64,000 nt of DNA, taken from the IMG/VR virus record IMGVR_UViG_2778261087_000003; one strand, given 5' to 3'. Shown one piece after another: positions 38,300 through 39,220 of this stretch. This stretch comes from a virus (lineage: Duplodnaviria; Heunggongvirae; Uroviricota; Caudoviricetes). Under the pieces are notes generated by a model, which saw nothing but the letters and a program-made list of their open reading frames with translations, was not told the origin of the DNA and searched no databases. Every line of letters begins with the position of its first letter. Position 1 is the first letter of the stretch. Made by a program: the position numbers and the translations under genes.

Positions 38300-39220
38300 T
38301 TAACCTCATTACTGGTTGGGAAATAAGGTTGCGGTGCCGGGCGCTTCCCGGTGTCCTTTGGCTGGTTATCCACCATGGACGGGGAAATAAGGAGAAATAA
38401 TGGACAGATATAACCATTTCCCCGCGTGCGCTTAGCCGCATTCACCGCAACGGAAAGAGCATTCCTGGTGGACCTGTAGATTGGGATATGAACCCGTTAC
38501 AGGAGAATGCTCTTACCTGTTACGTGCTCCGTTTCGTGGAGCTAACGGCGGGTGATCGGGCCGCACCAGACTGGACTTATTTCAGCGTTATGCTCATGCC
38601 AGAGAATCAAACTGTGATGGTCGGTGCTGAACTCCGACACAGGGTTGTAGCAAGCCCCGCAAAGCGCGCACTACTGTAGTTGCGGCACATCAGCCTGTGC
38701 ATTCACCACAATGTTGAGAACACTGGTTGTCACGCTGCAACGCAACATTTATTCGTAGATTGGGATATGACCCCGTTACGCCAGTGTTCTCAACGTTGTA
38801 GTGCCGGTTACGGTTCCGGCCAGGCCTCTTCCTCAACGGGGTGTTCTCCATACGGACTACCGTTTATTGGTCGTTCCTGCGGTTTATGTTGTGAAGCCAG
38901 ATGCTTATCTTCTGGTTGCTTCAAAGAGCTGCACTTCATCACAACGGTAAGAGCACTCGATGCATTTAAGCCAAGCCCCATAAGGGAGAATGCCCTTACC
39001 TGTTGTGTTGTGATGACCGGTGCTGATCTCCGGCTTGCGGTTATTTCAGACTCTCACGGGCGTTTAATTGCCCCGCCGAACAGCTCTTTTCCGCAATAGC
39101 TGCAATGTCTTTCGCGCATCAGCCTGCGCATTCATCACAACGGTAAGGGTACTTCGTAGGGATTCGAACCCTCTGCCAAGCTCGGCGATCTCCGACGTCG
39201 CAAAATACCCTTACCTGTTG
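38300..39220. repeat. non-coding region of degenerate repeats and tRNA-like hairpins
   Basis: Recurring cagcctg(t/c)gcattca(c/t)cacaa, gagaatgc(t/c)cttacctgtt and cccttacctgttgtg units; 10-bp GGTAAGGGTA/TACCCTTACC stem enclosing a T-arm-like GAGGGTTCGAATCCCTA around 39133-39220. Confidence 0.45.

Follow-up and report, generated by a model that had tools for sequence, protein, structure and literature searches.

What occupies the interval of about 900 bp between the TerB-like gene tciA and the tRNA-Thr gene in the P1-like phage-plasmid of IMG/VR record IMGVR_UViG_2778261087_000003? An earlier note on this DNA, a window of 64,000 nucleotides (the whole stretch that was analysed), had described positions 38300-39220 as a repeat-rich block with tRNA-like hairpins, and had offered decayed tRNA genes, processing signals or structured small RNAs as its content. 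Here we show that the minus strand of this block parses without remainder into four tandem modules plus two short spacers; each module joins a long-stem unit (LSU), in which an outer helix of 17-23 bp surrounds 'cargo' hairpins, to an STnc100-like domain (SLD), which is closed by the 9-bp helix GUUGYGRUG/CAYCRCAAC. The block is a non-coding part of the polycistronic, C1-repressed transcript of the ban operon, read from the minus strand, and its modules are probably tandem cassettes at which RNase III cuts the tRNAs, the small-RNA domains and the mRNA apart.

Four tandem modules of two RNA domains

The block is closely matched in P1-like phages: positions 38250-39250 have 99.5% identity with phage JL22 and 99% with P1 over the shared parts. 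The related repeats that had been reported at 38300-39220 are present, in copy numbers far above those of shuffled sequence. A repeat search recovered 10 direct-repeat families as well as long inverted repeats, one of them 23 nt long with 91% complementarity (38704-38726 / 38781-38803); CCCTTACCTGTTGTG has three exact copies (38993, 39208 and 39647; 0.07 expected from 100 shuffles), and the 21-mer CAGCCTGYGCATTCAYCACAA has two (38691 and 39120; 0.01 expected). Seen on the plus strand, these repeats correspond to the strands of RNA helices, of which two kinds alternate. In the LSU, the outer strands are CACAACAGGUAAGRGCA on the 5' side and UGCYCUUACCGUUGUG on the 3' side, with a bulged A. In the SLD, the 5' part is GGUGAAUGC plus a small hairpin (GCRCAGGCUGAUGYGC), and the 3' part is a hairpin of the CCGGAGAUCAGCACCGG type directly before the closing strand. 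In the direction of transcription, the units are:

39580-39663, minus strand: LSU0, a fifth, weaker unit 5' of the tRNAs, CACAACAGGUAAGGGCGCUG / CAGCGUCCUUUCCUGUUGCG; it holds the third CCCTTACCTGTTGTG copy
39130-39222, minus strand: LSU1, outer helix CACAACAGGUAAGGGUA / UACCCUUACCGUUGUG with bulged A; inverted repeat I8
39007-39141, minus strand: SLD1, closing helix GUUGUGAUG (39141-39133) / CAUCACAAC (39015-39007)
38934-39007, minus strand: LSU2, outer helix CAACAGGUAAGGGCAUUC / GAGUGCUCUUACCGUUG (RNAfold); cargo short and unlike a tRNA arm
38888-38945, minus strand: SLD2, a short version, GUUGUGAUGAAG ... hairpin CCAGAAGAUAAGCAUCUGG ... CUUCACAAC; direct repeat D5
38804-38887, minus strand: spacer with small hairpins, e.g. 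CCGGAACCGUAACCGG directly before LSU3
38701-38803, minus strand: LSU3, 23-bp outer helix CACUACAACGUUGAGAACACUGG / CCAGUGUUCUCAACAUUGUGGUG; inverted repeat I1, 23 nt, 91% complementary
38612-38712, minus strand: SLD3, closing helix AUUGUGGUG / CAUCACAG; direct repeats D2 and D7
38525-38611, minus strand: spacer
38440-38524, minus strand: LSU4, outer helix CGUAACAGGUAAGAGCAUUC / GAAUGCUCUUUCCGUUGCG (RNAfold)
38328-38451, minus strand: SLD4, the leader of tciA, closing helix GUUGCGGUG / CACCGCAAC around four hairpins

The cargo differs from one LSU to the next. LSU1 begins 2 nt past the CCA end of tRNA-Thr, and it encloses a T-arm-like hairpin, AGGGUUCGAAUCCCU (GAGGGTTCGAATCCCTA), at 39157-39173 on the minus strand; this is the T-arm-like element in a long stem that had been reported earlier. 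It lies directly 5' of the 3' strand of the outer helix, a tRNA-like placement, and a T arm with a UUCRANY loop joined to the 3' strand of the stem is found in LSU1 only. LSU3 contains two hairpins: a stem CGUA/UACG topped by an anticodon-arm-like GGG-GUCAUAU-CCC (38762-38774), and GUUGCGUUGCAGCGUGACAAC. LSU4 has a stem CCUGUA/UACAGG topped by an anticodon-arm-like GGG-UUCAUAU-CCC (38483-38495). The hairpins of LSU3 and LSU4 are thus look-alikes of anticodon arms (U33, CAU, A37 and three G-C pairs), not of T arms, so the earlier description of tRNA-like hairpins holds for LSU1 and had missed the anticodon-arm type. The spacer hairpin CCGGAACCGUAACCGG precedes LSUs in other loci too (e.g. L113).

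With 17-23 bp and at most one bulge or mismatch, the outer helices have the form of an RNase III substrate, that is, near-perfect double-stranded RNA of about 20 bp or two turns. They continue into the flanking RNA, and they have neither a 7-bp acceptor stem nor a CCA end. The RNAfold structures of LSU1 (-50.9 kcal/mol) and LSU3 (-55.6 kcal/mol) contain the long stem, and LSU0 folds at -41.7 kcal/mol. Our model R1 gives its own training members, LSU3 and LSU4, 54.8 and 56.3 bits; outside the training set, it gives LSU2 17.2 bits (E ~0.012), LSU1 16.5 bits (E ~0.02) and LSU0 only 9.4 bits (E ~2.9). Across the 64-kb window, the model has no further minus-strand match below E 0.3 outside the array.

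No Rfam family matches the LSU in this DNA or in 11 related loci, and a literature search for its motif sequences found no paper containing them; it appears to be an undescribed RNA family that is widespread in Enterobacterales prophages. Candidates that were tried on the units, here and in the 11 related loci, and gave no match include C4, DicF, AgvB, AsxR, Esr41 and other Rfam families. YrlA (RF02553), a candidate suggested by the long stem and the T arm, gave a sole match of 25.6 bits (threshold 69) that falls on the genuine tRNA-Thr/tRNA-Asn; on the units themselves, the Rfam C4 and YrlA models are silent at E<=10. The C4 RNA of P1 and P7 (processed by RNase P), YrlA and the T4 'species 1 and 2' RNAs are tRNA-like small RNAs. 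They share with the LSU the combination of a long stem and tRNA-arm mimicry; the T4 species lie, like the LSU, beside phage tRNA genes, and YrlA likewise has T-arm-like hairpins. Unlike them, the LSU lacks a D arm and a CCA end, and an anticodon-arm mimic such as it carries is not a known feature of those RNAs.

The second domain is a distant, tandemly repeated relative of STnc100, a known but uncharacterised RNA. SLD4, which stops 31 nt upstream of the tciA start codon, matches Rfam STnc100 (RF02076) at 38330-38449 over model positions 31-147 of 206 with 37.5 bits (E = 7e-6), a score below the gathering score of 47; in an Rfam scan at E<=10, this match is the sole non-tRNA signal in the block. 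The cmscan alignment includes the 5' GGUGAAU, the 3' hairpin of the GGGAGGCACCC type and the closing helix, which are the motifs common to SLD4 and Rfam STnc100. Elsewhere, STnc100 scores reach 39.6 and 43 bits for the tciA leaders of D6 and P7, and 34.4 bits over the whole model for the dicF-dicB spacer of Escherichia coli K-12. STnc100 is an orphan, prophage-borne small-RNA family that Zhu, Shabalina and Storz (2026) have related to PasD. The SLDs differ from Rfam STnc100 in being internal segments of a long operon transcript, in tandem, and in the sub-threshold score of SLD4. All four SLDs have the closing helix and the 3' hairpin, and in isolated folds, cut free of the LSU, all four form the closing helix; the 5' box is complete in SLD1, SLD3 and SLD4. 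In SLD1 the small 5' hairpin is GCGCAGGCUGAUGCGC and the 3' hairpin is CCGGAGAUCAGCACCGG; in SLD3 they are GCACAGGCUGAUGUGC and UCGGAGUUCAGCACCGA, and the SLD3 strand pairing ATTGTGGTG/CATCACAGT was found 10 times across loci.

Compensatory change, strand specificity and relatives

Several lines of evidence indicate that these folds are real. Folding of 38297-39225 yields -353 kcal/mol on the minus strand (z = -6.7 against shuffles) and z = -4.7 on the plus strand, and all four long stems are present in the minimum-energy fold of the whole block. We aligned 38 LSUs, LSU3 and LSU4 of this DNA among them, with MAFFT (alignment A1) and counted pairs against an explicit structure of 33 pairs. In A1, 85% of cells are paired, versus 37-50% when the partners are slid by 1-3 columns; both sides have changed in 16 pairs and 57 cells, where 17 cells are expected; and none of 500 shuffles reaches the observed percentage paired, the number of pairs or cells changed on both sides, or the covariation score. 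Most of the unpaired cells arise because MAFFT set the P1-type rows out of register. RNAalifold recovered only the inner hairpin from A1, and it missed the outer stem because the P1-type outer stems are out of register in that alignment. In a second set, of 24 distinct LSUs taken from species-representative genomes, pairing reaches 94% of cells and changes on both sides occur in 27 of the 33 pairs, in an alignment that leans towards structure because it was fitted to the model. The LSU stems of Pantoea and Yersinia have quite different sequences and still pair. The structure is also specific to one strand: sense matches to the LSU model score 93-113 bits versus 25-37 bits for the antisense of the same loci, a difference that reflects G-U pairs.

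For the SLD, an anchored table of strand pairs across loci reveals that the closing strands covary exactly at three positions: GTTGTGGTG/CACCACAAC occurs 52 times, GTTGTGATG/CATCACAAC six times, GTTGCGGTG/CACCGCAAC six times and ATTGCGGTG/CACCGCAAT three times. A looser helix test, which accepted any 8-of-9 complement within at most 180 nt, did not discriminate (333 of 404 anchors versus 287 of 404 when shuffled). SLD1 itself provides an instance of compensatory change: GAUG/CAUC in this DNA is GGUG/CACC in the otherwise 98%-identical copy of phage mEp460.

The two helices also have a segment in common. The motif GUUGYG ends the 3' strand of the LSU and, with the same 6 nt, begins the closing helix of the SLD, so that both helices cannot be complete at once. 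At the LSU4/SLD4 junction this motif carries a U-to-C change, and both partners follow it, with CGUAAC in the LSU and CGCAAC in the SLD where the other units have CACAAC. Both helices appear to be maintained despite the shared motif. The full-length fold favours the LSU stems; once it is freed from the LSU 5' strand, each SLD closes. We take the sharing of 6 nt between two covarying helices to suggest a refolding step that is triggered by cleavage.

The same modules recur in lambdoid prophages. The segment of about 140 nt that holds SLD1 is 98% identical in mEp460, in Stx2c-converting phages and in IME207; the mEp460 copy is part of the non-coding leader that separates the repressor gene from the first leftward gene. 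More than 120 viral contigs matched in an exact-pattern scan for the hairpin of LSU3/LSU4, and a separate scan anchored on the outer stem alone found further LSU copies. The lambdoid leaders of the SfV, ST64B, mEp460, cdtI and Stx2c type have a common layout: an LSU (often with two T-arm-like hairpins), an SLD and a DicF-like small RNA with an intrinsic terminator, and then an LSU abutting the terminator, GGAGAAAC, a hairpin with the loop (U/G)GCAG, a ribosome-binding site and the first gene. In loci such as L077, L128, L036 and L003, where both GGAGAAAC and the hairpin loop are conserved, that first gene of the leftward operon encodes an RdgC-like protein (MFNPFFKNL...) or else a conserved protein whose sequence begins MSNDRMTVVPDFLGELD. 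In lambdoid LSUs the loop of the second cargo hairpin often contains CUCCUAA, which resembles an anti-Shine-Dalgarno sequence. There is also a second lambdoid subtype of LSU (L019 at about 1900-2050 on the minus strand, L160, L136, L018 and L048) with two T-arm-like hairpins, e.g. CUGGUUCGAUUCCAG and GUCCGUUCGAUUCGGAC; the stems of these hairpins covary between phages, and such a double T-loop cargo might form a tertiary module. Elsewhere in mEp460 (L003), at 4980-5137 to the right of the cro-side genes, there is an Rfam isrK match (67 bits) next to a C4 antisense RNA match of 44 bits that is clipped by the end of the locus.

In a scan of one genome per species, we obtained 26 sense-strand LSU matches of at least 47 bits. 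Two of these are the LSUs of a P1-like Escherichia contig; of the other 24, which lie at full length in 22 species-representative genomes, 22 score above 90 bits. The hosts include Escherichia, Shigella, Citrobacter, Enterobacter, Kosakonia, Leclercia, Phytobacter, Mixta, Erwinia, Buttiauxella, Trabulsiella, Yersinia and Pantoea, among others; beyond these hosts and a contig labelled Chryseobacterium, the scan gave fragmentary matches only. The LSU on that contig (Chryseobacterium sp. 18061; L246, 3332-3453) is of the enterobacterial type, with 94 bits, and is probably contamination or a mis-binned prophage.

Proposed RNase III processing and the rival explanations

What might such an array do? 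A lead is given by the dicBF operon (ydfABC-dicF-dicB) of the Qin prophage of K-12 (locus L220). Here RNAfold gives an LSU at 2172-2258 with the long stem CCAUAACGCGAAAGCGCAUGG / CCGUGCGCUUCCGGUUGUGG, and the order is LSU, SLD, dicF (2383-2435), STnc100-like spacer and dicB. A DicF species of 190 nt is known whose 5' end is made by RNase III and which is gone in an rnc mutant (Ragunathan et al., bioRxiv 10.1101/2023.04.14.536235); that study confirms Faubladier et al. (1990) on RNase III and DicF. By arithmetic, 2435 - 189 = 2246, which, the published length being rounded, places the cut mid-helix in the 3' strand of the Qin LSU (2238-2258). Bearing in mind that a published RNase III cut thereby maps into an LSU outer helix, we read the LSUs as RNase III processing cassettes. 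P1 and Qin share the order of LSU, SLD, functional RNA, STnc100-like leader and protein gene; the Qin dicF-dicB spacer has its homologue in the leader of tciA in D6 and P7, both operons are repressor-controlled, and P1 has an annotated 'dicF-like' region. P1 differs from Qin in its four tandem modules and in the tRNA genes of its transcript, and the Qin LSU differs from those of P1 in its decayed cargo hairpin and its weak model score. To our knowledge, the LSU and SLD have not previously been described as repeated, conserved modules.

RNase III stems are known from the rrn operons and from phage early RNAs, such as T7 R1.1 with its related sites and the lambda N leader. Those stems are, like the LSU, long helices flanking functional RNA inside polycistronic early transcripts, and the rrn stems similarly have a boxA-like motif beside them. 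The LSU differs in what it encloses, namely conserved hairpins resembling tRNA arms instead of a large RNA or a simple internal loop; in addition, its sequence is conserved, and 6 nt of it are shared with the closing helix of the next domain.

We hypothesize that RNase III would cut each LSU outer helix (17-23 bp) of the P1 transcript, and that several events would be coupled to these cuts. The trailer of tRNA-Thr would be trimmed; the four SLD RNAs and the tciABC-trnI-ban mRNA would be parted from one another; the tops of the LSUs would be freed as RNAs of 60-90 nt carrying tRNA-arm-like hairpins; and GUUGYG would be released and would close the SLD into a compact RNA whose 5' end is base-paired. 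The data show how the modules are built, on which strand they fold, their covariation, their homology to the lambdoid and Qin leaders and the lack of coding constraint; that the outer helices of P1 are RNase III sites, and that cleavage is followed by refolding, we infer from the Qin homologue and from the shared motif. Cleavage-triggered refolding could explain how several stable small RNAs arise from one early phage transcript. The P1 ban/tRNA leader, the Qin dicBF leader and STnc100, until now treated as separate subjects, would be instances of one modular RNA architecture of P1-like and lambdoid Enterobacterales prophages. For the released SLD RNAs and the tRNA-arm-like RNAs, a regulatory or decoy role seems the most plausible. 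The activity most likely to be at work is a familiar one, the processing of a phage early transcript by RNase III. Of the possibilities raised in the earlier note, processing signals and structured small RNAs are the ones that the evidence favours: the position on the operon strand 3' of Pban/Op72, the z-score of -6.7, the compensatory changes and the homologue in Qin at a published RNase III site.

Several points weigh against this reading. The link to RNase III comes from one homologue, and the Qin LSU scores 10.5 bits (E ~0.07) with model R1; the position of the Qin cut is derived from a rounded RNA length; and the minimum-energy fold of the 190-nt Qin RNA has no SLD closing helix. A literature search found no RNA-level data for P1. 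SLD1, SLD2 and SLD3 have no STnc100 match even at E<=10, and their putative membership of that family rests on architecture and shared end motifs. Moreover, the outer stems conserve not just their pairing but also their sequence (CAACAGGUAAGRGC / GCYCUUACCGUUG, with the bulged A), which a plain RNase III site does not need and which hints at a sequence-specific partner. Finally, the conserved tRNA-arm-like cargo is left unexplained by a pure processing model.

That cargo is the subject of the rival that survives best, in which the LSU cargo RNAs would be functional mimics of tRNA arms, decoys or ligands for proteins that recognise tRNA, the long stem merely presenting or excising them. Among lambdoid LSUs that we anchored on the stem, with no selection on the hairpin, 24 of 40 distinct copies contain exactly GGGCUCAUAACCC, and nearly all the others are one base off, usually in the loop. 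Together with the C in front of it, this 13-mer is identical over 14 nt to the anticodon arm of metZ, an initiator tRNA of E. coli, and the match takes in the three G-C pairs. Three G-C pairs in the anticodon stem are a feature specific to initiator tRNA. The P1 copies, LSU3 and LSU4, retain GGG/CCC and the loop core UCAUA, and other LSUs have one or two T-arm-like hairpins with covarying stems. Against mimicry, only 3 of the 5 bp of the anticodon stem are kept, after which there is an internal loop; the cargo of LSU2 and LSU0 is not tRNA-like; the hairpin of the K-12 copy has decayed; and a literature search found no paper on such a mimic. On balance we consider functional mimicry rather unlikely. 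Candidate partners, each of them tentative, would be toxins of the VapC kind that cleave tRNA(fMet), the 30S P site together with IF3, MetRS, TilS or T-arm enzymes; a possible target exists in the enteric VapC toxins, which cleave tRNA(fMet) (reviewed in PMC7180214). Mimicry, doubtful as it is, would add to RNase III processing and is compatible with it. The broader proposition, that temperate enterobacterial phages (P1-like and of the SfV/ST64B/Stx type) would make mini-RNAs of single tRNA arms, excised by RNase III from the first transcripts made and acting in trans as decoys or ligands, we regard as unlikely. The most striking of these would be the initiator anticodon arm with its three G-C pairs and CAU loop, which might absorb toxins like VapC or bind MetRS or the 30S P site with IF3. 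It is nevertheless the most interesting possibility of this locus, to whose interest the segment shared by two helices also contributes: were it true, the mimics would protect or re-programme translation initiation at prophage induction, and the exact copies of an initiator anticodon hairpin in many LSUs make it a concrete and cheaply testable hypothesis.

A second rival views the modules as cis-acting antitermination signals of the nut or put kind, which would let polymerase pass DicF-type terminators. The modules always lie in early leaders, 3' of repressor-controlled promoters; a lambdoid LSU directly abuts an intrinsic terminator; in P1 a strong terminator stands between Pban and the tRNAs; and in lambdoid phages the next element is a hairpin whose loop is conserved. 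In addition, the LSU 3' strand, (G)UGCUCUUAC or UGCUCUUUCC (e.g. 38934-38950, 38440-38458 and 39137-39152, minus strand), resembles boxA of lambda nutR (CGCUCUUAC) and of rrn (UGCUCUUUAACAA). The boxA-like GCUCUUAC, though present in the LSU 3' strand, is base-paired within a 20-bp helix; the modules come in four tandem copies, a long way 3' of the terminator; and the first ORFs (open reading frames) after the lambdoid leaders (RdgC-like or the conserved protein) do not look N-like, as judged by eye only. We know of no antiterminator for the P1 ban operon, which also counts against such a role. The comparison with put is one of architecture: HK022, a lambdoid phage without N, likewise has a structured RNA in its early leader, but put is a two-stem V of about 70 nt with a triple helix, directly after the promoter (PMC9378689), and this description sets it apart from the closing helices, multiway junctions and tandem arrangement of the LSU and SLD. 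We consider antitermination distinctly unlikely.

The idea that the units are tRNA genes decayed by turnover of the phage tRNA cluster fares worse, and we judge it very unlikely. It can draw on the canonical T arm in LSU1, on an extra tRNA-Ser gene of D6 and P7 in the same interval and on the variability of the region between relatives. However, ARAGORN and the Rfam tRNA model (E<=10) find no cloverleaf in the units. The earlier note had seen neither anticodon arm nor CCA in the T-arm element; ARAGORN finds only tRNA-Thr, tRNA-Asn and tRNA-Met(CAU), and the relaxed Rfam scan that it had proposed leaves the tRNA model silent in 38300-39220. The units are kept in lambdoid leaders, and mEp460, the one checked with ARAGORN, has no tRNA gene; the tRNA-Ser of D6 and P7 sits between modules, not within a degraded one; and compensatory change in the helices points to selection rather than to decay. 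The earlier suggestion of decayed tRNA genes thus fails on conservation in lambdoid leaders, on long stems that covary and on hairpins that do not drift, besides the missing cloverleaf.

Could the inverted repeats act instead as DNA, as MITE-like elements (miniature inverted-repeat transposable elements) or recombination hot spots, with the RNA folds incidental? Relative to this DNA, P1 lacks 38957-39131, P7 lacks 39010-39204 and SJ46 lacks 38500-38755; in D6 and P7, 38461-38688 (the spacer at 38525-38611 plus most of LSU4 and SLD3) is replaced by another SLD, a tRNA-Ser(UGA) and another LSU. Every indel breakpoint falls in a repeated LSU or SLD strand or in the repeated cargo hairpin, as would be expected if homologous modules recombine, and the modules form a mosaic across P1-like and lambdoid phages. 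Such recombination is, however, an expected by-product of any repeated sequence, whereas the pairing requires G-U pairs of one strand (about 110 versus about 30 bits for the two strands) and the stems covary to quite different sequences in Pantoea and Yersinia; no target-site duplications were noticed, in work that included no search aimed at them. A role at the DNA level is therefore highly improbable. As a separate observation, the tRNA-Ser(UGA) of D6 and P7 (loci L004/L005, 1638-1724, minus strand) scores 43-47 bits on Rfam tRNA-Sec (gathering score 47), and in the D6 record tRNAscan-SE gave it no amino-acid call.

The remaining alternative is protein coding. The earlier note had seen no convincing ORF in the block; plus-strand ORFs of 63 aa (38488-38679) and 139 aa (38680-39099) do exist, and they are annotated as upl and plp in the P1 reference, and also in RCS47 and JL22, but they are not conserved as ORFs and their products have no Pfam domain. 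A conserved protein gene in relatives, which the note had named as a finding that would speak against its reading, is formally touched by upl and plp; the ORFs, however, are not conserved in the P1-like relatives. It is extremely unlikely that the block encodes Upl and Plp, given that upl is absent from D6, P7 and SJ46, that plp has a TTG start, an end overlapping tRNA-Thr and halves that lie in different frames in this DNA, JL22 and P7, that the P1-like E. coli plasmids shown have no RefSeq/PGAP coding sequence under the match, and that the ORFs run antisense to the operon through covarying RNA helices. The indel pattern among relatives is likewise incompatible with a coding constraint on the plus strand. 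The two ORFs are most likely annotation artefacts antisense to a structured RNA array, and recognition of the array would correct the P1 reference annotation.

The ban operon around the array

All certain genes around the block, tciB and tciC included, lie on the minus strand. The principal neighbours, in the direction of transcription, are:

40050-42314, minus strand: dmt
39843-39872, minus strand: intrinsic terminator within P1's 'dicF-like region' (terminator scan), GCCCAUCUUCGGGUGGGC followed by seven U; strong
39302-39377, minus strand: tRNA-Asn(GUU) (ARAGORN; Rfam tRNA model)
39224-39299, minus strand: tRNA-Thr(UGU) (ARAGORN; Rfam tRNA model), in the same transcript just upstream of the array
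37871-38296, minus strand: tciA (TerB-like), the first protein gene 3' of the array (ORF list, Pfam, P1 annotation)
37521-37596, minus strand: tRNA-Met(CAU) by ARAGORN; trnI (tRNA-Ile2) in the P1 record
35870-37240, minus strand: ban

The Rfam tRNA model gives the tRNA-Thr and tRNA-Asn genes 72.9 and 74.5 bits. The product of tciA matches Pfam TerB with 28.4 bits against a cut-off of 24.4, in agreement with the earlier assignment of this neighbour as TerB-like. In the P1 record, the C1-controlled promoter Pban and its operators (Op72) are located at the end of dmt, upstream of the block, which places the block inside the C1-controlled operon and on its sense (minus) strand; its earlier attribution to a C1-controlled tRNA-ban transcript is thus borne out by the P1 annotation. 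The order of the operon is Pban, a DicF-like RNA with terminator, LSU0, tRNA-Asn, tRNA-Thr, four LSU-SLD modules, tciABC, tRNA-Ile2(CAU) and ban.

The P1 record marks its 'dicF-like region' between Pban and the tRNAs (about 39833-39934, transferred by alignment). The DicF covariance model (RF00039) has no match in 37000-40200 at E<=10, while the positive control, K-12 dicF, scores 76.7 bits, so that the label lacks covariance-model support. With a strong terminator separating Pban/Op72 from the tRNAs, polymerase that starts at Pban would have to read through it to express the tRNAs, tciABC and ban. A promoter scan found no sigma-70-like promoter in 37400-40200 on either strand, which gives the predicted upl promoters of the P1 record no backing.

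The P1 homologue of the tRNA gene at 37521-37596 is annotated as tRNA-Ile2 and is 89% identical to ileX; lysidine modification would be required. One operon thus carries a tRNA with a CAU anticodon together with two look-alikes of CAU anticodon arms. Hairpins of the SLD 3' type also occur next to tRNA genes: at 39380-39400 (minus strand), CCGGAGACGUACCCGG followed by CAAGU lies immediately 5' of tRNA-Asn, and in D6 and P7 (about 1825-1860 of the D6 region) a like hairpin plus CCACCACAAC lies 4 nt 5' of tRNA-Ser. The 3' end of an SLD may therefore double as the 5' leader of a tRNA.

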